This document shows positions 997-15,157 of a DNA stretch of 64,000 nt, one piece after another. The position numbers and the translations under genes are program-made. The stretch is from Desulfobacteraceae bacterium (GTDB lineage Bacteria; Desulfobacterota; Desulfobacteria; Desulfobacterales; JAABTS01), in assembly GCA_011389735.1 (NCBI GenBank), contig JAABTS010000006.1, positions 107 through 64,106 on the forward strand, written 5' to 3'. The notes under the pieces were generated by a model. That model saw nothing but the letters and a program-made list of their open reading frames with translations. It made no database searches and was not told where the DNA came from. How positions within the stretch are numbered: the stretch's first letter is position 1; every line of letters starts with the position of its first letter.

Positions 997-1097
997 TTTT
1001 TCAGGGATTTAATTTCACAAGGCGACGGCTCCGCGATAATGCACTGAGTATATCCGAGGGAGCAGGCCGCACGAGGAAATTAATTATCTGCAAAACG
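997..1097 (+). repeat. tier-1 palindromic MITE/REP-like element, full length
   Basis: The sequence runs ttttcagggatttaatttcacaaggcg...gaggaaattaattatctgcaaaacgg. It matches the family consensus and overlaps the last codons and stop of gspK. Confidence 0.75.
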
Positions 1098-2120
1098 GTA
1101 AAATTTATCCGTCCATTCAATGATGGAAAATTGTGTTTGTTTATCCGGTTCGATTTCAATCAACGCCCTTATCCCTCGTTTAAAATTGCTTTCATTGACG
1201 ATCCCCTCTGAAACGATCGTATAGTAAGGAGACATTTCTACGGAAATAAAAGCGTTGCACTGGCTATAAGCGTCAGTCCCGATTATTTCAACCAGTTCGT
1301 TCGATGTTCGAAAATCTTTTTCCTTCCGGTAATTCATGATGTCAGTCACCATTGATTCCGTAATTCCAGGAAGCAGGGCGATCATCTTCGAAGACGCCGC
1401 ATTGATGTTGATCGTTTCTTTCTTTGACGTTTTATTTTCATCCGCCTCTTCTTCCGGAAAGACAATGATCAGATCCTTGACGGCTCGGAACACCTCGTCC
1501 GTAACACCTCTGACCCATCGCAATTCATTCACGGATAAAAAATCCCCGTTCCTGCACTTGTATGGTTCCGGCAGAGATTGATAAAAATCGTCTTCGGCCC
1601 CGTGAAGCCTGTGGAGGGAATCTTTATCCCGCCAGTCCAGAATTGAATCCACAATGACCGCGATTTCATTTTCGTCAAGATCCGATCCGCCGAACAGTAT
1701 TTCCAGAAGTTTTCTGTTTTCCACCTGATTGATATTTATTTTCCCGCTGGTGTTTTCTATTTCAATTCTCACGCCGCCATTTGCATACGAAAATTCAGGG
1801 ATGTGGGCGTTGATCCTCCAGACTGGCGCTTCGGCGGTTTCATCATCTGTATCTTTAGGGCTCGATGGTTTGTTTTGTTCTTCAATCAATCCAGCGATCG
1901 CCTGATTGAATCCCGCATAAGCCATGTAATACGCTTCCCCATCTTCGATAAAATTTTTAGTGACAGCTATTTCAGTTCGGGTGGTTCTGCAAAATTCTCC
2001 TACGATAACCGATAATAAAGCCAGTACCCACAAAACCAGCATCAAGGCGATCCCCTTGTTTGCATTTGTATCCGGATCACTGTTGAATGCGGGCGATAAT
2101 ACATGACGGCTTTTGGTCAT
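1080..2120 (-). CDS. gspK: type II secretion minor pseudopilin GspK
   Basis: It has an N-terminal hydrophobic helix (GIALMLVLWVLALLSVIV) and an SGKININ motif. Its size (~346 aa) and its position after gspJ fit GspK. Confidence 0.85.
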   Translation of the reverse strand: MTKSRHVLSPAFNSDPDTNANKGIALMLVLWVLALLSVIVGEFCRTTRTEIAVTKNFIEDGEAYYMAYAGFNQAIAGLIEEQNKPSSPKDTDDETAEAPVWRINAHIPEFSYANGGVRIEIENTSGKININQVENRKLLEILFGGSDLDENEIAVIVDSILDWRDKDSLHRLHGAEDDFYQSLPEPYKCRNGDFLSVNELRWVRGVTDEVFRAVKDLIIVFPEEEADENKTSKKETININAASSKMIALLPGITESMVTDIMNYRKEKDFRTSNELVEIIGTDAYSQCNAFISVEMSPYYTIVSEGIVNESNFKRGIRALIEIEPDKQTQFSIIEWTDKFYRFADN

Positions 2121-2766
2121 TTTTTTCCTTCAAACATACTTTGACGGCTTTTGGCGCTTGTTGTTTTCCACCTGGGGGGGAAGCCGCCGATTCCCATTTC
2201 AGGCCGCCGTCCGCCAGGGAGTAGGTTCTGCAATAGCTAAAGGTTATCTCTTCCGCTCCGGAAAGCAGATTGTGAAAGCGATCTGAATCGGCTTCGTTTT
2301 TGAATCCGTTGGTTTTATTCGCCATGACGAGGTTTCCTATCGGCTTTTCTGAAAATAAAAGCGCGGCTTCGCCTTCCAACGCCCGTTCGATTTTATATTC
2401 GACTTCGACGCGCCCGAATGTTTCATGTCCGGGAATAAGCGGCAAAACAGATACAAACGCCATTGAATATTCATCCCCTTTGAATTCACAGGATAAATTA
2501 GCTTTTTGGGAACCGGCGGGCGTGCAGGCCGAAGCAATTTGTTGTTTGATCAGATTCAGCACAATTCGCCTCTTCTGAAGCATTTCAATGTCCCGTTCAC
2601 CTCTTTCCCACGCCCGTATTCCCGTCCTCATACCTAAAAACACCATCATCACGATAATAGATAAAATGGTTAGGGAAATCAGAAGTTCAATCAGGGTAAA
2701 TCCTCCAGACGATTTCATTCCGGACAAGACCAAACGATGACGCACGGACGATCGATTAAAAATCAT
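2077..2766 (-). CDS. gspJ: type II secretion minor pseudopilin GspJ-like
   Basis: It carries a prepilin N-methylation signal, GGFTLIELLISLTILSIIV. Its position lies between gspI and gspK. Confidence 0.75.
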   Translation of the reverse strand: MIFNRSSVRHRLVLSGMKSSGGFTLIELLISLTILSIIVMMVFLGMRTGIRAWERGERDIEMLQKRRIVLNLIKQQIASACTPAGSQKANLSCEFKGDEYSMAFVSVLPLIPGHETFGRVEVEYKIERALEGEAALLFSEKPIGNLVMANKTNGFKNEADSDRFHNLLSGAEEITFSYCRTYSLADGGLKWESAASPPGGKQQAPKAVKVCLKEKNDQKPSCIIARIQQ

Positions 2767-3284
2767 CAGTATGACGCTCCGGCGTCGAAAAACAATTCGT
2801 CTTCAGGAGACAACAATTCCGCTGTTTTCAAGGTTTGCAATTGATAACTCCGGTCCTGCGCTCCGTCGGGCCATGTGACATCGATAAGAATATCGAATAT
2901 TATCAATCCAGACTCTTTTGATTCATCTTCCTCCGACGTGTTTTTAATGGTGACGCGCCATTTGAAATCTTCGTCACATGCCCCCGACCATTCTCCTTCG
3001 GCCAGGGCCGGGTAAATCAAGATTTCCTCCATCTTTTCTTTTGCATAAAATGCGGCGCGGGTATAATCTTCGGATATTCCGACGGTTTGCAATCCCTGAG
3101 AAAACAGGTGCAAAATGATCACGAGGGAAATCGATAAAATCATCATCGCCACCAGTGTTTCAATCAGCGTGAACCCTGTTTGCAGGTCTATACGAATCCG
3201 TTCATTGTTCCTGATCTTCGATTGAGACCATTCCGGTAATGAAATCGATCCTGCACACAAATTGATTTTCGGTTTCATTATCAA
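2766..3284 (-). CDS. gspI: type II secretion minor pseudopilin GspI-like
   Basis: It carries the prepilin signal TGFTLIETLVAMMILSISL. The true start is probably downstream of the listed Met, because the listed ORF overlaps the gspH 3' end. Confidence 0.7.
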   Translation of the reverse strand: MIMKPKINLCAGSISLPEWSQSKIRNNERIRIDLQTGFTLIETLVAMMILSISLVIILHLFSQGLQTVGISEDYTRAAFYAKEKMEEILIYPALAEGEWSGACDEDFKWRVTIKNTSEEDESKESGLIIFDILIDVTWPDGAQDRSYQLQTLKTAELLSPEDELFFDAGASY

Positions 3285-3738
3285 TGATGATTACTTCGCC
3301 CCCGCTGCTAGAACCGTCCGGATAGAATAGAAATGTCGAGAATTCCTGATCGCCGTATCTTTCCAATTCCTCAGCGGCAGAGATCTCAATTCCATCGGGT
3401 GCGGGATATACTTTATAAAATTGCGGTTCATCTTCAATACCGTCCTCTGATTGATGGAATCTCATAGTGATTTTTTTTCTATCCGGTCCAATTTTACACT
3501 CAACGGTTTTTCCTGATACAACGGCTTGATTCCTTGCATATCTAAAAACAGACGTTGTATCGGCCGCCGCTGTTTTTAAGGTGGTGGAGCCGATCGAACC
3601 CGCCAATCTCGGGACGGACATGGCGAAAATAAGCCCCATGATCGTCAGAACGACCAGTAATTCGAGAAGCGTGAAACCGGAATCTTTTCCGATAACTCGA
3701 ATAATCCGTTTATATATCAATATTTTTCCAGTTAACAA
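3202..3738 (-). CDS. gspH: type II secretion minor pseudopilin GspH-like
   Basis: It carries the prepilin signal SGFTLLELLVVLTIMGLI. Its position lies after gspG. Confidence 0.7.
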   Translation of the reverse strand: MLTGKILIYKRIIRVIGKDSGFTLLELLVVLTIMGLIFAMSVPRLAGSIGSTTLKTAAADTTSVFRYARNQAVVSGKTVECKIGPDRKKITMRFHQSEDGIEDEPQFYKVYPAPDGIEISAAEELERYGDQEFSTFLFYPDGSSSGGEVIIIDNETENQFVCRIDFITGMVSIEDQEQ

Positions 3739-4150
3739 TATCCTGATTCACCTTTTCGCCGCCGACCTGGTTATCCGCGCCGTAGGAAATGATTTCGTAC
3801 TCGCTGCGTTCTCCCGGACAACGGTAAACATAAGGATTTCCCCATGGATCCAGGGGAAGCTCATGTTTCAGATACGGACCTCGCCATTTTTTTTCACTGA
3901 CATCATGCGGCCTTTCTCTAAGAGCATTCAATCCTTGTTCGGTTGTCGGATACTTTCGGACATCGAGTCGGTACAAATCCAGAGCCGTTTCAAGCAGGGA
4001 TATCTGTTCTTTGGCGGCTTTAACTTCGGCGGGCCACTGCTGACCAAACAGATTGGGCAGCACCATGGCGGCCAGAAGCGCCAGGATGCTCATAACTATC
4101 AATAGCTCAATCAATGTGAATCCTTGTTCCCGTTTTCTTTTATGTTTCAT
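3710..4150 (-). CDS. gspG: type II secretion major pseudopilin GspG
   Basis: The N-terminus is QGFTLIELLIVMSILALLAAMV. The C-terminal ...DPWGNPYVYRCPGERSEYEIISYGADNQVGGE is typical of GspG. Confidence 0.9.
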   Translation of the reverse strand: MKHKRKREQGFTLIELLIVMSILALLAAMVLPNLFGQQWPAEVKAAKEQISLLETALDLYRLDVRKYPTTEQGLNALRERPHDVSEKKWRGPYLKHELPLDPWGNPYVYRCPGERSEYEIISYGADNQVGGEKVNQDIVNWKNIDI

Positions 4151-4231
4151 TCTTTTAATCCTGTTTATAAAAATTGAATCCTTATTTGGAATTATATCGA
4201 ATCGAATTTATATCACTCACAAATGGTTATG

Positions 4232-5452
4232 TCAAAATGGGATGCTATTGATACTGAAAATTGCGGTCAGCATCGAAATCACGATAAACCCGACAAGCAA
4301 TCCCATAAGGAGGATCATGGCGGGTTCCAACAGACTGATGAATCGCTGGATTGTTCTCCGCACCGTTTTTTCATAATTCTCGGCTACCCGCATCAGCATT
4401 TGATCAAGGTTGCCGGTTTCTTCTCCCACCGTTATCATTTGTACCGCGAGCGAAGGGAAAACGCCGGCTTCGGCCAAACGATCCGATAATCTTTCTCCCT
4501 CTTTTATTTTTTCATGGATCGATCCCAATGCGTCCGCAATGACTTTGTTGCCCATAACGTCCTTGACAAGATCGATGGCCTGGAGGATCGGAACACCGCT
4601 CGACATCAACGTGCCCAATGTTCTGGCGAAACGGGAAACTTCCACGTTTCGAACGATATCGCCGATAATCGGGAGTTTGAGTTTGTACCTGTCTAGCCGG
4701 GCTCCGCCCATCTGAGTCCTGCCGTATCTGTAAATAAAATAAATGCAGGCGGCCAGCATAATCACGACACTCCACCAATATTCGCGGAACCATTGGCTGA
4801 ATCCGATTAGAAATCGTGTTGAAAGCGGTATCGCCTGTCCCATGTCGGAAAAGAGTACAGAAAATTTGGGGATTACATAGATCATCAAGATAATAATCGA
4901 AACGCCGCTTGTAAACACAATGAAGGCCGGATAATAAAGCGCCGACATGATTTCATCTTTAAGTTCTCTTGTATTTTCGAGAAATATGCTCAGGCGTTGA
5001 AGAACCGCGTCCAAAGCGCCTCCCGCTTCCCCGGCCTTGATCATGTTAACGTAAAAATCTGAAAACGCCTTCGGATGGCTCGCCATTGCATCCGACAAAT
5101 AGCTCCCCCCCTGAACCGCCTTTAGTATTTTTTCGATAACCGTTTGCAATTTCCGGTTTTCCGTGACGGCGACAAGGGTTTTCAGCGCCCGGTCAATGGG
5201 AAGTCCCGCCTGAATCAGTGACGAAAGATCCTGCGTGAACATCAACACGTCTCGGGTCGATACGCCGGTAAAAAGGGCCAGAGGATTGGATGCGCCGCTG
5301 AATTTTTGCGTCGCTCCCGCCTGCTGAATTTTAATGGGAATCAGGCCCTGATCGTGAATCAGTCCTACAGCGCCTTTCTCATCTTTGGCCTCAACCGCTC
5401 CACGGATAATTTTCCCGGAATAATCCGTCGCCTTGTATGCGTATTGCGTCAT
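4232..5452 (-). CDS. gspF: type II secretion inner-membrane platform protein GspF
   Basis: The 406-aa protein has two T2SF-type repeats with TM segments. It overlaps the gspE stop. Confidence 0.92.
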   Translation of the reverse strand: MTQYAYKATDYSGKIIRGAVEAKDEKGAVGLIHDQGLIPIKIQQAGATQKFSGASNPLALFTGVSTRDVLMFTQDLSSLIQAGLPIDRALKTLVAVTENRKLQTVIEKILKAVQGGSYLSDAMASHPKAFSDFYVNMIKAGEAGGALDAVLQRLSIFLENTRELKDEIMSALYYPAFIVFTSGVSIIILMIYVIPKFSVLFSDMGQAIPLSTRFLIGFSQWFREYWWSVVIMLAACIYFIYRYGRTQMGGARLDRYKLKLPIIGDIVRNVEVSRFARTLGTLMSSGVPILQAIDLVKDVMGNKVIADALGSIHEKIKEGERLSDRLAEAGVFPSLAVQMITVGEETGNLDQMLMRVAENYEKTVRRTIQRFISLLEPAMILLMGLLVGFIVISMLTAIFSINSIPF

Positions 5453-6969
5453 ATTTCGAGTGTCACCCGAAGGACTTCCTGAATGGTCGTGATTCCGGAT
5501 TTAACTTTATGAAAACCGTCTTGCCGCAATGTGACCAGCCCTTGTTGCATCGCCGTCTTTTTAATAACGTCGGCGCTGGAGTTGTTGATGATTTTTTTTC
5601 TGATGTCATCGTCGATCCTAAGATATTCAAATATGCCTGTCCGTCCTTTAAAGCCGGTATTTCTGCATTCCTCACAGCCCATCCCCTGATAAAAGCGCAT
5701 TTGCTTTATTTCATCGGAGGGCATGTTCAGCGATTGAACCAGTTTTTGATCAGGATCGATTTCGGTTTTGCAGTGTTGACATATCACGCGGACCAGCCTT
5801 TGCGCCAAAATTCCCAGAATGGTGGAACTGAGAAGAAAGTTTTCAACGCCCATATCCAGAAGACGTGTAATGGCTCCCGCTGAATCATTCGTATGAAGAG
5901 TGCTGAACAGCAAATGGCCTGTCAAAGCTGATTGAACGGCGATTTCAGCGGTTTCAAAGTCCCTTATTTCGCCCACCAGAATAATATCCGGGTCCTGACG
6001 CACGATAGCGCGTAGACCGTTCGCGAACGTCAACCCTATTTTCGGATTCACCTGGATTTGATTGATCCCTCTAAGCTGATATTCAACCGGATCTTCAAGC
6101 GTAATGATTTTATTTTCAGGCGCATTAATCTTGGCCAGCGTCGTGTACAGGGTCGATGTCTTTCCGCTTCCGGTCGGGCCGGTTACCAGGATCATTCCGT
6201 ACGGTTGCGAAATCGCATTGTTGTAGGTGTCAAGGACGCTATCAGGAAATCCGATATGTTTTAAGTCCAGGATAAGTGTTTCTCTATCGAGAATCCGCAT
6301 CACCAGGCTTTCTCCGAAAAGAGTGGGTATAGTTGACACTCGAAAATCGATTTCCTTATCGGCGATTCGGAGCTTGATCCGGCCGTCCTGTGGAAGCCTT
6401 CGTTCAGCGATATCGAGTCTGGACATAATCTTGACTCTGGAGATAATCGCAGCCTGAAGTCGTTTTGGAGGCGATTCCACGTCGGATAATACACCGTCGA
6501 TTCGATACCGTACCTTGAATTCATTTTCAAAAGGCTCAAAGTGAATGTCACTGGCCTGAATTTCCACCGCGTTATAAATGAGGCGGTTGACCAGACGGAT
6601 GATAGGCGCTTCGGAGGCGATATCGCGCAGCCGGTCCACATCATCGTCATCGCCGCCGGTTATTTCATAAACCCCTTTTCCGGCTTCTTCGATGATCGTT
6701 TCGATGGATTGGCTACCGGCGCCGTATAATCGTTCGATGGCGTCCAGAATATCCGCCGCTTTTCCGCGGCAAACATCGACATCGAGATTGTAAGCGTATT
6801 TTAAGGCGTCGATTGTGCCATAGGCTTCCGTATCGGCCATTGCAATTTCAAGAATGTTATCCGAAACGGAAAGCGGAACAAACATTGCCTGACGCATAAA
6901 TTTTGAGGAAAGATTGCTCAATGTGACCGGATCTTTTGGATAATCCTGATATGTGATGTCTCGAATCAT
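5449..6969 (-). CDS. gspE: type II secretion ATPase GspE
   Basis: It has a Walker A motif (GPTGSGKT) and a tetracysteine motif (CQHCK...CEECRNTG). It also has an N-terminal T2SSE_N-like domain. Confidence 0.93.
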   Translation of the reverse strand: MIRDITYQDYPKDPVTLSNLSSKFMRQAMFVPLSVSDNILEIAMADTEAYGTIDALKYAYNLDVDVCRGKAADILDAIERLYGAGSQSIETIIEEAGKGVYEITGGDDDDVDRLRDIASEAPIIRLVNRLIYNAVEIQASDIHFEPFENEFKVRYRIDGVLSDVESPPKRLQAAIISRVKIMSRLDIAERRLPQDGRIKLRIADKEIDFRVSTIPTLFGESLVMRILDRETLILDLKHIGFPDSVLDTYNNAISQPYGMILVTGPTGSGKTSTLYTTLAKINAPENKIITLEDPVEYQLRGINQIQVNPKIGLTFANGLRAIVRQDPDIILVGEIRDFETAEIAVQSALTGHLLFSTLHTNDSAGAITRLLDMGVENFLLSSTILGILAQRLVRVICQHCKTEIDPDQKLVQSLNMPSDEIKQMRFYQGMGCEECRNTGFKGRTGIFEYLRIDDDIRKKIINNSSADVIKKTAMQQGLVTLRQDGFHKVKSGITTIQEVLRVTLEI

Positions 6970-8268: not shown

Positions 8269-8592
8269 GGATGCCTCCTTTGTTTCATTCCGCCTGGATT
8301 ATTCAGATGATCAGCTCCGTTGGATCTACGGATTAACGATTTTGAAATGCTGATCTTTCCGAAAATCTAAAGGCTTGACCTTTTATATAGAAAGGACGAT
8401 AACACAACGACTGAAACGCGTCAAGAAATAATGAGAACAAAATCGTATATAGCCGATTCTTTTTTTCGGTCATTCGCGTTCCCTTGGGAACCGATTGCTG
8501 AAAAACATATTGGTTTTAAAGCCATTTTTAAGATCAGAACGTTTTAAATGACTGTTTGCTGTGAATTTGCGATGCTTAAATGGATGTATGTA

Positions 8593-8621
8593 TTGACACT
8601 TCGTAATCCGATTGATATTAT
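8593..8621 (+). promoter_or_regulatory. sigma70-like promoter candidate upstream of the mglB/mglA cluster
   Basis: TTGACA (8593-8598), a 17-nt spacer, then TATTAT (8616-8621). A second, weaker TTGACA-17-TAAATA lies about 55 nt downstream. Confidence 0.45.
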
Positions 8622-8765
8622 GCTTTCAGATATTTTACAAAAAATATTTTGACAGCTTACTGAGGTTTCGGTAAATAGTGTTGATTTAGTGTTTCTACCC
8701 TTATTGAATACTGGCTTTCAACAACTGTTTGCGGGGTACGGAAAAAGTGATAGGAGGATAAGGCA

Positions 8766-9182
8766 TTGGGTTCCGATGACAGCTATGAGTTCACTGATTA
8801 CTCTTTAGATCAGGAGCAACTGGAATATATTGAAGAGGTGCTCGACGATGATTTGATCCAGGCCGGTGTTCACAGCGTACTATTGATTGATATGGCTGGG
8901 AATATAATCGCTCAAAAGGACAATGGACATTGTGATCATGATGTGTATTCCCTCGCAGCCCTGGCGTCGGCCAATTTCGCTGCGGTGGATACAATGGCGA
9001 AGATTGTTGGTGAAGAGGAGTTCTCACTCCTGTTTCACAAGGGAGAAAATGAAAATATACATTTCAGTAAGGTCCATTCCGAATTCCTGCTAATCACGAT
9101 TTTCGGCAAAGATGTTACGCTTGGATTGTTACGTCTCAAGGTAAATGAAGTCGTTGAAAAAATTAGGGGGCTTTGGGAATAG
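8766..9182 (+). CDS. mglB: Roadblock/LC7 (MglB-like) protein, paralog 1
   Basis: The core VHSVLLIDMAGNII...YSLAALASANFAAVDTMAKIVGE..FSLLFHKGE has a Roadblock/LC7 look. The TTG start lies 8 nt after AGGAGG, and the gene is immediately upstream of mglA. Confidence 0.8.
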   Translation: MGSDDSYEFTDYSLDQEQLEYIEEVLDDDLIQAGVHSVLLIDMAGNIIAQKDNGHCDHDVYSLAALASANFAAVDTMAKIVGEEEFSLLFHKGENENIHFSKVHSEFLLITIFGKDVTLGLLRLKVNEVVEKIRGLWE

Positions 9183-9304
9183 GCGTAATGCGAAAGTCGT
9201 TGAAAATACGCTCGAATAGTTCTCATTTCGAAGGATATAGTTATCTATCTTCCGGCGAATATGGATCCGGTGAAAACAGTAATTGTGATTAGGAGGAACC
9301 AACC

Positions 9305-9904
9305 TTGGCGTTTGTCAATATGAAAACAAAAGAAGTCCAGGCCAAGATTGTATTTTATGGGCCCGGCAGAGGGGGAAAAACCACCAACCTTGAATATGTT
9401 TATTCCAAATTCAGGGAACGTATAAAAACGGATATGGTCAGCATAAAAACGCATGGAGATCGAACGTTGTTTTTTGATTTCCTTCCCTTTGACATTGGAA
9501 AGATAATGGGATATGACGTAAAAATTCAGTTATACACCGTTCCCGGCCAGGTCAAATATAATGCGACGCGTAAACTTGTGCTAAAAGGTGTGGACGGTAT
9601 GGTGTTTGTCGCTGATTCGCAGCGTGATAAGCGGGAAAAGAATCACGAATCCTTGAAAAACTTACAAGAAAATCTTGCAGCTTATAAAAAAAGCATATTT
9701 AAGATTCCCCTGGTTCTTCAATATAATAAGCGGGATTTGAAAGAAACGCCTTTAATGCCGATCGAAATGATGGAAAAAGATTTGAACAAACAGCTCAAGG
9801 CGCCATCGTTCCCGGCAAGTGCGATTACCGGGGAGAACGTGGTGCCGACGTTAAAAAAAATTATATCGCTAACCATGGCTTCCTTGCAAAATGTAATGAA
9901 ATAG
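9305..9904 (+). CDS. mglA: MglA-family Ras-like small GTPase
   Basis: The motifs are the P-loop YGPGRGGKTTNLEYVY, RTLFFDFLP, the MglA-type G3 LYTVPGQ (Thr in place of Asp) and the G4 motif YNKRD. It aligns closely along its length with M. xanthus MglA as I recall that sequence. The TTG start is preceded by AGGAGG. Confidence 0.9.
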   Translation: MAFVNMKTKEVQAKIVFYGPGRGGKTTNLEYVYSKFRERIKTDMVSIKTHGDRTLFFDFLPFDIGKIMGYDVKIQLYTVPGQVKYNATRKLVLKGVDGMVFVADSQRDKREKNHESLKNLQENLAAYKKSIFKIPLVLQYNKRDLKETPLMPIEMMEKDLNKQLKAPSFPASAITGENVVPTLKKIISLTMASLQNVMK

Positions 9905-9916
9905 GAGGATAACGCA

Positions 9917-10336
9917 GTGGGATCCAATTATGACGACAATGTTTCTTATTCGGATTTCACCCTCGGTCACGAAGAATTGGAGACCATAGAGGAAGTCCTG
10001 CAAAAAGACCTTGTCGACGGTGGTGTTCATAGTGTATTGCTGATTGATATGGCTGGCAATATCGTCGCGAAAAAAGATAACGGCAATTGTGAACACGATT
10101 TGTATTCTCTGGCGGCTTTGGCGTCGGCGAATTTTGCGGCGGTCGATACAATGGCGAAAATTGTGGGGGAAAATGAATTCTCGCTTCTTTTTCATAAAGG
10201 GGAAGAAGAGAGCATTCATTTCAGCAAGGTAAATCCGGAATTTTTATTGATTACCATTTTCGGAAAGGAAGTCACCCTCGGGTTGCTTCGACTGAAAGTG
10301 TCCGAGGCCATAGAGAAAATCAATTCGATATGGTAA
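9917..10336 (+). CDS. mglB: Roadblock/LC7 (MglB-like) protein, paralog 2
   Basis: Its core is about four-fifths identical by eye to the 8766..9182 product. It shares the same TAGGAGGATAA RBS context and uses a GTG start. Confidence 0.8.
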   Translation: MGSNYDDNVSYSDFTLGHEELETIEEVLQKDLVDGGVHSVLLIDMAGNIVAKKDNGNCEHDLYSLAALASANFAAVDTMAKIVGENEFSLLFHKGEEESIHFSKVNPEFLLITIFGKEVTLGLLRLKVSEAIEKINSIW

Positions 10337-10474
10337 AAAAACCACCATTGACGGATAAATAGCCGTATAGGATGTATATAAACAAGACAGAATCAGGATA
10401 TCGCTACCATTGAATACGTCTTCCACCTTATTGATAAAGCATGTGGATTTTAATACGACTATCAGTCAAGAATT

Positions 10475-10578
10475 TATAGGTTTTCAGAAATTAAATTTCA
10501 CAAGGCGGCAAGCCTGGGATAAAGTGTTCGTATATCCTAACCGACAACGCAGTGAAATTTGATTTTTGAAAGACTATA
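10475..10578 (+). repeat. tier-1 palindromic element, full length
   Basis: The sequence runs tataggttttcagaaattaaatttcacaaggcggcaagcctgggata...tatcctaaccgacaacgcagtgaaatttgatttttgaaagactata. Confidence 0.85.
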
Positions 10579-10691
10579 CAGCACCCCAGGCTCGATATTA
10601 TGAAAAAACATAAATACTGCAAGCGAACTCCGACAGGAGCCACCCCGGGATACCCCAATCGACTTGCCGGAAGATCTGAAATTAGGAGGGT

Positions 10692-11600
10692 ATGCAATTG
10701 AGTTCTGAAAAGAATGGCAATATTTCTGCTCAGGTAGATAGTCGCCTGGACGATCTTTTTGGTGATGGAGACGAGCAAAGCGAGAATTTTGAAAACAAAG
10801 AGACCGAAGCCGAAGTCAATGACAGGATTGATGACATTTTCGGCGATTCCGGTTCCAATGATTCCGGGGCGAATGAATCGCCTATCGAACTCGACAATCC
10901 GAATAAAATGAAATCCGACCAGAAATCCGACCAAAAGAAGAGCAAGACTCCTCAAAGATCGAGCAGGCATGCGGCTCAACCGGAAGAAAATTCCCCTATC
11001 CAAGATTTGAAGTCCGTTATTTTGTCCCTTGAATGGGAAATCAGCGATCAGGTCATGCAGCGGTTAGGGGAAGAAGTGCTAAAGCTGGAGGGGGAATATA
11101 AAGACGATAAAATTGTCGTTGCTTTTCTCCAACTGTTGGGATCTTTGGGCAAATATATTCAGAAAAAGCGAGCCGAAGCGCATCCGGATTCGATCAGCCT
11201 TTTGAACTCGGTTTATGAAAACCTTGAACAAGTCATTATGTCTGATGAGTTAACCGATTCGGCCAAGAAAAAGATGCTTGTTACAGAGGTTAACAAATAC
11301 AAAAAGCTCAAAGAACACATCGCCTCCATAAAATCCTCCGTTCCCAGGAAAAAAGAGTATAAACCGGCGGGAAAGCCGCCGCAGGAGTATGAGCCGGAAC
11401 CCGTCGAGGCTCCGGAAACTGTCGCCGGTGGTGAAGAAGAATCCTCAGTATCAGGCGCGCCGGAGAGTTATACGGGGATTTCTGCCGACGAACATTCTGA
11501 GCAGCAATTAATCATAAAAACCCTCCAAGAAATTAATCAGACCATTAAGAGCGAATTTCAGGCGCTTCGTGAAGAACTACATTCATGGAAAAATTCATAG
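10692..11600 (+). CDS. hypothetical acidic protein (DD[LI]FGD repeats, Pro/Glu-rich linker, helical core)
   Basis: This long ORF has an AGGAGG upstream and lies co-directionally between mglB2 and the FHA gene. I recognise no family, and the start is uncertain. Confidence 0.5.
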   Translation: MQLSSEKNGNISAQVDSRLDDLFGDGDEQSENFENKETEAEVNDRIDDIFGDSGSNDSGANESPIELDNPNKMKSDQKSDQKKSKTPQRSSRHAAQPEENSPIQDLKSVILSLEWEISDQVMQRLGEEVLKLEGEYKDDKIVVAFLQLLGSLGKYIQKKRAEAHPDSISLLNSVYENLEQVIMSDELTDSAKKKMLVTEVNKYKKLKEHIASIKSSVPRKKEYKPAGKPPQEYEPEPVEAPETVAGGEEESSVSGAPESYTGISADEHSEQQLIIKTLQEINQTIKSEFQALREELHSWKNS

Positions 11601-11652: not shown

Positions 11653-12129
11653 ATGATTATTTTTTGCGAAGAATGTGGTCAACGAAATGTCGTTGAGCCG
11701 GAGGACATCGACAAAGAACCTCGGTGTTCTTCATGTAAAGACAAACTCCGCATTCCGGTAACGGCGCAAAGCGCTCATAAAGCAGTTCAAGTCAGCGGGC
11801 CGAAAAACCGGCTTGAATTAAAATTTAAAGAAGATGTGATTGAAATCAGCCAGAACAGACCAAGCGTTACAATGGGGCGTCAGCGATACAACGACCTCGT
11901 TGTCGAAGACAATCGAGTGTCCAGATCACATGCTCGTTTCGAATATCGCCGAAACGAATTTGTACTCATTGATCAAAGCACGAATGGAACCTATGTTTTT
12001 GTAAAAGGCAAAAAAGGAATGAATCTCAGACAGGACGAACTTCCTTTAAATGGAAGCGGATTTATCGGCCTGGGGCGCAAAGTGGCGTCCAATTCCCCTG
12101 AAGCCATCCATTTTATCATCCATAACTGA
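11653..12129 (+). CDS. zinc-ribbon + FHA domain protein
   Basis: The N-terminus has CEEC...CSSC (MJ0042-type ribbon). The C-terminus has the FHA signature MGRQRYNDLVVEDNRVSRSHARFEY...LIDQSTNGTYV. A GGAGGG RBS is present. Confidence 0.8.
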   Translation: MIIFCEECGQRNVVEPEDIDKEPRCSSCKDKLRIPVTAQSAHKAVQVSGPKNRLELKFKEDVIEISQNRPSVTMGRQRYNDLVVEDNRVSRSHARFEYRRNEFVLIDQSTNGTYVFVKGKKGMNLRQDELPLNGSGFIGLGRKVASNSPEAIHFIIHN

Positions 12130-12307
12130 ATCCGGAAGGTTTTTTCGAATTTTCCCACGCTAAGTCCGCTAAAGAAGGCGTGTTTGATTATCAATCCCCT
12201 AATTCCCCTAATTAATTTAGCGGAACTGTCCGCCCGGGATAATGCCGTCCGCATATCCTAATTATCCCAGGCCGACAATGCGCGCAGTGCAATTTAATCG
12301 ATTACTA
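12126..12307 (+). repeat. composite/degenerate tier-1 element
   Basis: The right half, gcccgggataatgccgtccgcatatcc...ccaggccgacaatgcgcgcagtgcaatttaatcg, matches the family. The left half is degenerate and contains cccctaatt x2. Confidence 0.55.
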
Positions 12308-13069
12308 TCCTGCCTCCTGTTTCGCCAGCATCGTCGCCGGGTCCATCAGCACGGAAAGATTGAGCGGCTCCACGTTTCCGGCGGATTTAATCACCTTTAG
12401 CACAATTTTTTCCTGCTCCGGCCGAATCTGCAATGCAATATCAAAAATATCGGAATATTTTGATAACGGTTCCGGCAAGAGTTCCGCCGATAAATTCGTT
12501 TCCAAAGCATTGCGATGGGTTTTCACGGTAAACCAGATGCATAGTTTGTCCTTGCCGGCGAAATCTTTCAATTCGGTTAAAATGTCCTCGATATCGTCAT
12601 GAAACGGTAAGCCATCGAATACAATCGCATCAGGATAAAAAATGCCCTGCTCCGTTAAATCAGCCAGCCGTTCGTAGAATTTGGGCATACTGAATTTGTT
12701 GACATTGAATGTCATGATGAACCGTTTGGACAAAAGCGTTTCCCATAAAGAACCGGCTTGATGAGATTCATACGCTGTGGTCATGTTCCGGTAAACTTCT
12801 TCATACCAGAGGCATATTTTTCGCACCGGATCGCCCATGCTGATGTGAAGCACTTTTTTATTCTGCAGCATATTATCCATGGCGATCTGGACGAGCAATG
12901 CTGTTTTACCAAGACCCGCTCTGGCCAGTACGGCGCCGAAACCACCCGGTTCCGGAATTGAATTGTTTTCATGAATGATAGCCCTCAACGGGCTTTTATG
13001 AATCAGCTCTTGTCTCAAAATATCTATCTTCATTTTATATAACTCTATAATCAATCTGTTTTCCGGCAA
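12305..13069 (-). CDS. RecA-superfamily (KaiC/RadA/DnaB-C-like) single-domain P-loop ATPase
   Basis: It has a Walker A motif (LARAGLGKTALLVQIA) and a Walker-B-like motif (DAIVFDGL). The start is either the TTG at 13069, abutting the EF-G stop, or the ATG at 13033. Confidence 0.6.
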   Translation of the reverse strand: MPENRLIIELYKMKIDILRQELIHKSPLRAIIHENNSIPEPGGFGAVLARAGLGKTALLVQIAMDNMLQNKKVLHISMGDPVRKICLWYEEVYRNMTTAYESHQAGSLWETLLSKRFIMTFNVNKFSMPKFYERLADLTEQGIFYPDAIVFDGLPFHDDIEDILTELKDFAGKDKLCIWFTVKTHRNALETNLSAELLPEPLSKYSDIFDIALQIRPEQEKIVLKVIKSAGNVEPLNLSVLMDPATMLAKQEAG

Positions 13070-15157
13070 TCATGCGGCGTTACTGCTTTTTTTGTCGGAT
13101 TTCTTTCTAAGGGTTTCCACGATACTTTCAGGCGCTTGTTTATAGGTAAGAAATTCCATCGTGAACTGCGCTTTGCCTGTGGTTAACGACCGGAGTACTG
13201 TTGCATAACCGAACATTTCAGCAAGCGGCGTCTGAGCTTCGACCACGCAAAACGTGCCGTCGTCTTGAGCCCCTAATATAACGCCCCTCCTTTGATTTAA
13301 CGATCCCATAACCGATCCTTGAAATTCAGGAGGTGTTTCAACAACCACCTTCATGATCGGTTCCAGTATCACAGGCGCGGCTTTAGGATATGCTTCCATG
13401 AATGCGCCCCTGGCGGCGGCTTGAAACGCCATTTCCGAAGAATCGACGCTGTGGTGGTTTCCATCGGTGATGACGGCTTTTACGCCGGTGACGGGGTAGC
13501 CTAGTTTAGGGCCCTTTTTTAAACAATCACGAAAACCTTTTTCACAGGACGGAATATACTGCGTCGGAATGGAGCCGCCGACAACTTTGCTTTCGAATAT
13601 GAATTCACCATCCTCCAGTGGTTCCAGGAATCCTTGAATCCGGCCGTACTGTCCTGATCCGCCGGTTTGCTTTTTATGAGTGTAATTAAATTCGCAGAGT
13701 TTTGTAATCGTTTCCCGGTAGGCTACGCCGGGGGCGCCCGTGGTGATCTCGGCCTGATATTCTCGTTTCATTCGTTCGACGTAAATATCGAGGTGCAATT
13801 CACCCATACCCGAAATGAGGGTTTCGTTTGTTTCGTCATTGACGAAAACTTTAAAGCTTGGATCTTCCTTCATAAATCGATTCAAGGCTTTGGACATGTT
13901 GATTTCGGATTTGTGATCCTTTGGAAAAACGGCCAGGGATATGACGGGCTCCGGCACGATAATGTTGGTCATGGTCAAATCTATCCCGGGGGCTCCGAAC
14001 GTATCTCCGGATGCAAAATCTACTCCGAAGAGCGCTCCTATATATCCCGCCTGCAATTGATCGATATCTTCCATTTGATCGGCGTGCATTCGGATCACCC
14101 GGCCAATTCTGTTTTTTTTGCCGGTTCGGACATTGACGACCGTGTCCCCTTTTTTTAACGTGCCTTGATATACCCGGATATAGGTCAATTGCCCATATTG
14201 ACCTTCTTCGAGCTTAAATGCGAAAGCGATCAGCGGTTTGTCCGCATCGCTGTCCACAACAATTTTCCGGTCAGGGTCATCGCAGGCCATTGCAATGTTA
14301 TCTACTTCCGAAGGGCAGGGCAGGTAACGAACCACGGCGTCCAGAAGAGTTTGAACACCCTTGTTTTTATATGCGGACCCCAAGAACACCGGCGTCAATT
14401 CGCGTTTGAGAACTCCGGTGCGCACAGCTTCGATCAACACTTTGGAATTAACTTCTTTCTCTTCCAGAACCGTTTCAGTCAACTCATCCGAAAACATGGC
14501 CGCCGCATCGATAAGAACTTCGCGGAATTTCAGCGCATCTTCCATCATATGATCCGGAATCTCAGCTTCCAGAATGTCTTCCCCATGAATCCCCTCGTAG
14601 TACAAGGCTTTCATGTCGATCAAGTCAACGACCCCTTTAAAATCGGCTTCCAAACCAATAGGCAATTGCATGGCGACCGCATTATGACCTAATTTTTCTT
14701 TAAGCTGGGAAATGACCCGAAACGGATTGGCTCCATTTCGGTCCATTTTATTGATAAACGCAATGGAAGGAACAGCGTATCGTTTCATCTGTTGATCGAC
14801 TGTGACGGACTGCGATTGAACGCCTCCGACCGCGCATAAAACAAGGATGCCGCTGTCAAGAACCCGTAACGACCGTTCCACCTCAATGGTGAAATCGACA
14901 TGGCCGGGGGTGTCGATGATATTTATTTGGCGTCCCTTCCATTCACAATATGTCGCCGCCGAAGCAATCGTGATGCCGCGTTCTTTTTCGAGGTCCATGG
15001 AATCCATTGTTGCGCCCACCCCATCCTTGCCTTTAACATCGTGGATGGCGTGAATCCGTTTGGTGTAAAACAGAATTCTTTCTGTGAGCGTTGTTTTGCC
15101 TGAGTCGATGTGAGCGCTTATTCCGATGTTTCTAAGTTTTGAAATATCAAATTTCAT
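13070..15157 (-). CDS. fusA: elongation factor G paralog (stand-alone, EF-G2-like)
   Basis: The motifs are [23 protein letters not shown] and NKMDR, with full five-domain length. The gene is not in an rpsL-rpsG-fusA-tuf context. Confidence 0.92.

Follow-up and report, generated by a model that had tools for sequence, protein, structure and literature searches.

MglA and MglB form the best-studied small-GTPase polarity switch in bacteria, and a central question in current work is how a symmetric dimer of MglB comes to act on a single MglA in an asymmetric way. In the modules of Myxococcus xanthus and Thermus thermophilus, mglB lies next to mglA in the same direction, and MglB is a homodimeric GTPase-activating protein (GAP). 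Here we examine a 64,000-nucleotide (nt) stretch of contig JAABTS010000006.1 from a Desulfobacteraceae bacterium, referred to in its full length as the window, in which the genes are likewise adjacent and co-directional but two mglB genes are present, one on each side of mglA.

In the solved systems, MglB dimerizes through α2 and β3, the two-helix (α2) face of the dimer binds MglA, α1 and α3 lie on the opposite, four-helix side, and the MglA:MglB stoichiometry is 1:2 (PMC3199381). The dimer sits asymmetrically on MglA (PMC3199381, PMC11016934); M. xanthus Asn37 and Arg98 have been assigned to the GAP-side protomer, and the N-terminal tail of M. xanthus MglB1 pairs with MglA β0 (PMC11016934). 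The proteins encoded in the window share with these complexes (PDB 6IZW, 6H5B, and 3T12) the Roadblock fold of MglB and, in MglA, Arg53, Thr54, Thr78, Gln82, and the hydrophobic β2 contacts to MglB. They differ in several respects: the C-terminal extension and Ct-helix of M. xanthus MglB are missing, the match ending near M. xanthus residue 129, at the C-termini of the proteins described here; M. xanthus Asn37, Gly68, and Arg98 are replaced by Ala, Thr, and Glu/Asp; and both MglB copies add an acidic tail, MGSxYDD.

A 2014 survey described one MglA coupled to two MglBs in Group 3 systems (β/γ-Proteobacteria) and in a few Group 1 cases (PMC4316618). The Group 1 cases in Table S2 of that survey are Chloroflexus, Herpetosiphon, Chloroherpeton, and Sphaerobacter, and only one of their two MglBs falls in the clade co-evolving with MglA; every MglB-coupled deltaproteobacterial entry has a single MglB (PMC4316618). 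As in these 1:2 systems, one mglA in the window is genomically coupled to two mglB genes. The genes of the earlier Group 1 cases, however, are divergent or separated and have PATAN neighbors, whereas the copies described here flank mglA in one direction; both are, moreover, close paralogs within the same clade, and their origin can be traced. Two MglBs per MglA are already known, and what was not described before is the Desulfonema-clade lineage and the flanking close-paralog form. The genome paper for Desulfonema ishimotonii makes no mention of Mgl. The locus is thus a modest variant of the known MglA/MglB system. Most of the Group 1 two-MglB systems reported in 2014 come from filamentous or gliding bacteria (Chloroflexus, Herpetosiphon, Chloroherpeton), and the clade described here includes gliding Desulfonema filaments; filament gliding may be linked to the extra MglB, or this may be coincidence.

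A sequence-only reading of this DNA had proposed an mglB-mglA-mglB arrangement, with an MglA gene between two genes for Roadblock/LC7 proteins of about 138 amino acids. The arrangement is real, consisting of three intact, co-directional open reading frames (ORFs) at 8766–10336 on the forward strand, and the same layout was found in 20 other genomes:

8766..9182, + strand: upstream copy of mglB (B1, or 'U'), TTG start, 138 amino acids, MglB-type Roadblock/LC7 protein
9305..9904, + strand: mglA, TTG start, 199 amino acids, Group 1 MglA small GTPase with intrinsic Arg53 and Gln82
9917..10336, + strand: downstream copy of mglB (B2, or 'D'), GTG start, 139 amino acids, MglB-type Roadblock/LC7 protein

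Both copies lie well within the distance at which an mglB is counted as coupled (at most four genes from mglA), with B1 ending 122 nt before mglA and B2 starting 12 nt after it. No further MglA or MglB genes were found elsewhere in the 64-kb window. An assembly artifact was ruled out by an independent Logan contig carrying DJ-1, B1, MglA, and the start of B2, together with the 20 genomes that share the layout.

The central gene was correctly named as mglA. Its product matches the MglA structures of M. xanthus and T. thermophilus over its full length (E 1e-57), with 52% identity to the M. xanthus protein, and keeps Gly19, Thr26, Arg53, Thr54, Phe56/57/59, Thr78, Gln82, Asn141, and Asp144. The P-loop (GxxxxGK[T/S]) reads GPGRGGKT and the G4 motif ([NT]KxD) reads NKRD. 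Group 1 MglAs are defined by an Arg beside the G2 Thr and a TVPGQ G3 motif, as opposed to the Thr and GTPGQ of Groups 2–5 (PMC4316618); the protein in the window has both features, with Arg53-Thr54 in DRTLFFDF and T78-VPG-Q82. By its motifs it is a textbook Group 1 MglA, for which GTP binding and MglB-stimulated hydrolysis are predicted.

The flanking proteins were likewise correctly assigned. Both pass the Pfam model PF03259 (Robl_LC7; 34.2 bits for B1 and 35.5 for B2, gathering cutoff 23), and the NCBIfam MglB equivalog NF052242 is their best match, although it misses its threshold (61.6 and 62.4 bits against a cutoff of 200). The fold and solved-chain evidence comes from B2, to which B1 is 88% identical in the core. 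A sequence search with B2 recovered solved MglB chains (E 1e-16), the match covering M. xanthus MglB residues 8–129. Its AlphaFold2 model (pLDDT, the predicted local distance difference test score, 80.5) has the MglB-type order α-β-β-α-β-β-β-α, with α1 at residues 18–31, β1 at 39–44, β2 at 49–54, α2 at 62–83, β3 at 89–94, β4 at 98–105, β5 at 109–115, and α3 at 121–138, and its top Foldseek matches are the M. xanthus and T. thermophilus MglB structures 6HJM, 6IZW, and 3T1R (TM-score 0.7–0.8, E 1e-10). On these matches and this model, B1 and B2 are both MglB-type Roadblock proteins with predicted GAP activity. The acidic tail added at the N-terminus (about 11 residues, MGSxYDD...) is disordered in the model, conserved on both copies throughout the clade, and missing from canonical Desulfobacterales MglBs.

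The sequence-only reading had also described the two cores as highly alike, with many synonymous changes between the genes, and this held when counted. B1 and B2 share 104 of 139 residues (75%), rising to 88% over residues 36–128, with 68% identity at the DNA level; of the 137 codons that align, 36 are the same in both genes, 67 show synonymous differences only, and 34 encode different residues. Across the 21 two-copy genomes, the two copies share 95% of their residues in α2 and 100% in β3. Most of their differences lie in the N-terminal tail, α1, the β4-β5 loop, and α3, and in the window identity falls to 47% in the tail and 33% in the loop; the core is invariant column by column in both copies. 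In the 21 two-copy genomes, no residue marks upstream or downstream copies throughout the clade. Five positions separate the copies in one subgroup and three in another; these are mostly I/V or D/E swaps, they are not common to the subgroups, and the window mostly departs from them. The counterparts of M. xanthus Asn37 and Arg98 are Ala and Glu/Asp, alike in both copies.

We searched for the same layout among relatives by an MglA scan of one genome per species, which gave 80 loci, to which that of D. ishimotonii was added separately (L081); loci were searched with a B-family profile and by tblastn. Desulfonema-like sulfate reducers share the mglB-mglA-mglB layout: it is present in 20 further species-level genomes from the Desulfonema/Desulfococcaceae clade (L001–L017, L019, L021, and L024), or 21 with the window. 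Among them are Desulfonema magnum, D. limicola, and HSG2, HSG8, and HSG16, the last three being genomes from micromanipulated large filaments assigned to Desulfonema. A downstream mglB alone was found at the mglA locus in L018, L020, L023, L025, and L026, all with ample upstream sequence, and in D. ishimotonii; the single-downstream-copy relatives include D. ishimotonii and a Desulfococcus metagenome-assembled genome, as judged from a search of the mglA locus alone. In the D. ishimotonii locus, an IS605 OrfB/TnpB-type transposase gene (L081:3861–5033) lies directly upstream of mglA, where other Desulfonema have the upstream mglB. In other Desulfobacterales and relatives, which account for the remaining 53 loci, the canonical single upstream mglB is present in all but two; these two show no mglB in a stretch before mglA that is cut short or outside the ORF listing. 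In a tree built from MglA and the conserved neighboring protein X (described below), the downstream-copy-only genomes group together as one clade (bootstrap 90), with D. limicola as its sister (bootstrap 95); the backbone of this tree was not resolved.

The start sites of the two copies are also closely alike:

8751..8765, + strand: B1 ribosome-binding context, TAGGAGGATAA (8751–8761) followed by GGCA, directly before the TTG start
9902..9916, + strand: B2 Shine-Dalgarno, TAGGAGGATAA (9902–9912) followed by CGCA before the GTG start, with the mglA stop codon TAG inside it

These contexts agree in 15 of 16 bases (blastn E 0.035). The common start context claimed earlier is therefore real, although its spacer is four bases long and not five as had been stated. 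The AAATAGGAGG context, with the mglA stop inside it and a gap of 11–12 nt, recurs at most in-group loci that have a downstream copy. Because the mglA stop codon sits inside the B2 Shine-Dalgarno across a 12-nt gap, B2 appears to be translationally coupled to mglA.

The origin of the upstream copy can be followed in four relatives, where an nhmmer search with an mglA nucleotide profile found decayed, frame-shifted mglA relics directly upstream of the upstream mglB:

L006:4878–5443 (D. magnum): mglA relic, nhmmer E 1e-42, P-loop region gone
L013:4978–5380 (HSG8): mglA relic, nhmmer E 9e-40, P-loop region gone
L012 (HSG2): weaker mglA relic, nhmmer E 3e-7
L024: weaker mglA relic, nhmmer E 7e-4

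The order at these loci is relic-mglA, mglB, mglA, mglB, and the upstream mglB therefore derives from tandem duplication of an mglA-mglB cassette. In these relatives, the cassette was duplicated in a lineage in which mglB had earlier shifted to the downstream side of mglA, after which the first mglA decayed and its mglB was kept. Since the mglA beside the upstream mglB decayed while that mglB stayed intact, this origin shows selection for an extra mglB, acting on mglB alone. We infer the same origin for the window, where solely the shared 16-base ribosome-binding context remains; the B1 context includes a TAG, which in the downstream context is the mglA stop. No mglA or mglB relics were detected in the window by nhmmer or tblastn in 8269–8765, 9183–9304, or 10337–10691.

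Quartets and bootstrap trees did not bear out an early, clean division of the copies into upstream and downstream orthologs. Quartets within subgroups favor orthology (45/45 and 9/10), whereas those between subgroups favor within-genome pairing (49/50), and neither all upstream nor all downstream copies were monophyletic in any of 200 bootstrap trees, in which support for this 139-residue protein is weak. The data fit either one duplication with gene conversion or several duplications.

Consistent with the earlier proposal of an old duplication kept by selection, synonymous divergence (dS) between the copies is saturated, and the ratio of nonsynonymous to synonymous divergence (dN/dS) is low in each copy among orthologs. 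Between B1 and B2 in the window, dN is 0.165 and dS is saturated (Nei-Gojobori); the within-genome pairs of the 20 other two-copy genomes have a dS of at least 0.84 or saturated, with dN/dS of 0.03–0.17 where dS is finite. Ortholog comparisons of each copy separately gave median dN/dS values of about 0.04–0.07, and close genome pairs with unsaturated dS gave 0.05–0.14 for the upstream copy and 0.03–0.04 for the downstream copy. Each mglB copy is under strong purifying selection on its own. A recent tandem copy or recent gene conversion was ruled out by dS, which is saturated in every genome, even at 84–89% amino acid identity. Decay of one copy was ruled out as well, with both ORFs intact in 21/21 genomes and ortholog dN/dS well below 1 for each.

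Expression of the operon was considered from the following features:

8593..8621, + strand: candidate sigma-70-type promoter, TTGACA-17-TATTAT with TG, 11/12 in a consensus scan, about 145 nt upstream of B1
9183..9304, + strand: B1-mglA spacer of 122 nt, ending in the mglA Shine-Dalgarno AGGAGG (9291–9296)

Promoter-like sites are not enriched in the region (10 found, compared with 6.6 ± 3.2 in shuffles), and the candidate is a pattern match alone. The B1-mglA spacer has no terminator-like site, Rfam match, unusual RNA fold (z -0.11), or gene relic; co-transcription of B1 with mglA is plausible because the spacer lacks a terminator-like site or unusual fold. In relatives the spacer measures 62–178 nt, and in D. 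limicola 22 nt.

Taken together, these results lead us to favor, as somewhat probable, a system in which one Group 1 MglA is served by two interchangeable, freely mixing MglB GAP subunits, retained for dosage or gene order. As in M. xanthus and T. thermophilus, an MglB dimer formed through α2 and β3 would bind one MglA-GTP on its two-helix face and would stimulate hydrolysis indirectly, by positioning MglA's own Arg53 and Gln82. Because B1 and B2 hardly differ in α2 and β3, the B1B1, B1B2, and B2B2 dimers would be expected to form without discrimination, each able to bind MglA. B1 would head the operon and B2 would be coupled to mglA, providing two mglB genes per mglA and matching the 2:1 complex. 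The least certain step is the cause of retention, which would most likely be dosage or a benefit of having mglB translated ahead of mglA; duplication would restore an mglB to that position where the original had moved downstream. A division of labor between B1 and B2 is unlikely. With two close MglB paralogs around one mglA, and with D. magnum and D. limicola, both cultured gliding filaments, among its members, the clade is a natural setting in which to ask whether different proteins can occupy the two protomer positions; the lack of paralog specialization makes this less promising and speaks instead for dosage or gene order.

Several observations weigh against interchangeable copies. The upstream copy evolves somewhat faster, with a mean dN of 0.122 compared with 0.082 for the downstream copy in one subgroup, and 0.165 compared with 0.04 in the D. 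limicola pair; this could be the start of divergence. Truly redundant copies should be lost, and their persistence past synonymous saturation argues for some non-redundant role. The surfaces formed by the N-terminal tail, α1, and α3 could bind different partners in a lineage-specific way. In addition, a run search found no RNA run containing this sequence.

The sequence-only reading had suggested an obligate heterodimeric GAP, and a specialized, possibly obligate, heterodimer would have B1 and B2 each fill one of the two non-equivalent MglB positions on MglA, one 'MglB1'-like (about 77% of the interface, its N-terminal strand against MglA β0) and the other 'MglB2'-like, orienting switch I. The intrinsic asymmetry of the MglB dimer on MglA (PMC3199381, PMC11016934) would accommodate such roles, both copies are retained under selection in 21 genomes, and the most divergent parts, the N-terminal tail and the β4-β5 loop, have M. 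xanthus counterparts that touch MglA or flank Arg98. Roadblock heterodimers also exist in eukaryotes: MP1/p14 (LAMTOR3/2) and the RagA/C C-terminal domains share the fold and dimerize through α2 and β3, and such complexes, MP1/p14 included, are among the Foldseek matches of the B2 model. Eukaryotic pairs, however, are highly diverged obligate partners, whereas the interface here is nearly the same in both copies and single-copy relatives exist; neither the interface divergence nor the strict co-occurrence of an obligate MP1/p14-type heterodimer was found. With α2 and β3 at 95% and 100% identity, nothing favors hetero- over homodimers, nor are homodimers disfavored. No copy-specific residue holds clade-wide, the subgroup ones being conservative and unshared; the Asn37 and Arg98 positions do not distinguish the copies; and the clade itself contains lineages whose mglA locus has the downstream copy alone. 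We therefore regard a specialized heterodimer as unlikely, and its obligate form, as originally proposed, is not supported by these comparisons.

The other earlier suggestion, a GAP paired with an MglC/RomX-like regulator, would turn one copy into a regulator or a scaffold that keeps the fold, either MglC-like or a co-GAP. MglC, also a second Roadblock protein in the MglA polarity system of M. xanthus, is an example of an MglB paralog in such a role (PMC4719450, PMC7949163), and the faster evolution of the upstream copy would agree with it. MglC, however, is unlinked to mglA, less than 9% identical to MglB (10.1101/2020.08.27.270058), and not a GAP, in contrast to the 75% identity between B1 and B2. 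The very low identity and lost MglA-binding surface of an MglC-like protein were not found here: the MglA-binding helix is complete in both copies, both score equally against MglB models and the family profile, and no conserved residue is lost from one copy alone. The MglB core is complete in both, which does not suggest a divergent non-GAP paralog in either case, and this explanation is the least probable of those considered. Only a little less improbable is a neutral leftover, a second mglB of no benefit that has not yet been lost. Tandem copying of the cassette with decay of one mglA could leave such a by-product, and the upstream copy is absent at the locus in some lineages. The co-duplicated mglA, however, has decayed or is beyond detection, whereas the adjoining mglB is intact in 21/21 genomes with dN/dS of about 0.05–0.14 despite saturated dS, a contrast that is the signature of selection.

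Two further genes follow the mglB-mglA-mglB genes on the same strand:

10692..11600, + strand: conserved protein 'X', 302 amino acids, which follows mglA or the downstream mglB in 79/81 loci
11653..12129, + strand: zinc-ribbon and FHA protein, 158 amino acids, Pfam FHA E 1e-12, N-terminal CxxC...CxxC

X is probably part of the mgl module. It comprises an N-terminal RLDDLFG motif, a confident five-helix bundle (102–216), and a C-terminal helix (268–301); the motif occurs twice in the X of the window, the second copy reading RIDDIFG. No Pfam or NCBIfam model matches X, which is 'hypothetical' in every source, and Foldseek against the PDB returned nothing below E 0.1, the matches being generic helical bundles such as CheA P1 and FAT domains. 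Nothing points to RomX: none of the 50 Foldseek matches listed is a RomX structure, and RomX has been described as a bundle of three helices. The layout described for RomY also differs from that of X. The spacer between B2 and X (10337–10691) is 355 nt long, compared with about 50–80 nt in the compared relatives, and contains no gene relic or Rfam match.

The RLDDLFG motif is similar to an acidic helix at the C-terminus of M. xanthus MglB (ISDDDIDNLFSE; DDDIDNLF), which is missing from the MglBs described here. In M. xanthus, nucleotide exchange is promoted by this helix, which binds an allosteric pocket of MglA (PMC6785124). Of four pocket residues checked, the MglA of the window keeps three, namely Ile64 (M. 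xanthus Leu64), Ile67, and one α5 lysine, and the second α5 lysine is Ser. The X motif as a stand-in for the MglB Ct-helix is a lead, and X, lying beside mglA across Desulfobacterales, may be a more useful one than the paralog pair. A broader picture of a two-gene MglB can be drawn, in which B1-B2 dimers would put different tails and four-helix faces on MglA, RLDDLFG of X would act as the Ct-helix in trans, and the upstream mglB would be selected for assembly order or stoichiometry; we consider this combination quite unlikely, ranking it just behind the specialized heterodimer.

The zinc-ribbon/FHA gene follows X only in the clade with mglB downstream of mglA (L001–L027 by tblastn, with an FHA gene at the same position in L081), and was therefore gained together with the rearranged mgl locus. 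On the other side of the mgl operon and divergent from it, the window holds a type II secretion/type IV pilus-like cluster (1080–6969, − strand) encoding a GspK-like protein, three pseudopilins with N-methylation motifs, GspF, and a GspE/MshE-type ATPase with an MshEN domain; a GspE/MshE-type ATPase gene lies near mglA in 13 of 80 related loci. At 12305–15157 (− strand), an EF-G paralog (695 amino acids) and an unassigned 254-amino-acid protein are encoded, which are conserved beside mgl in 41 and 30 of 80 loci, respectively.

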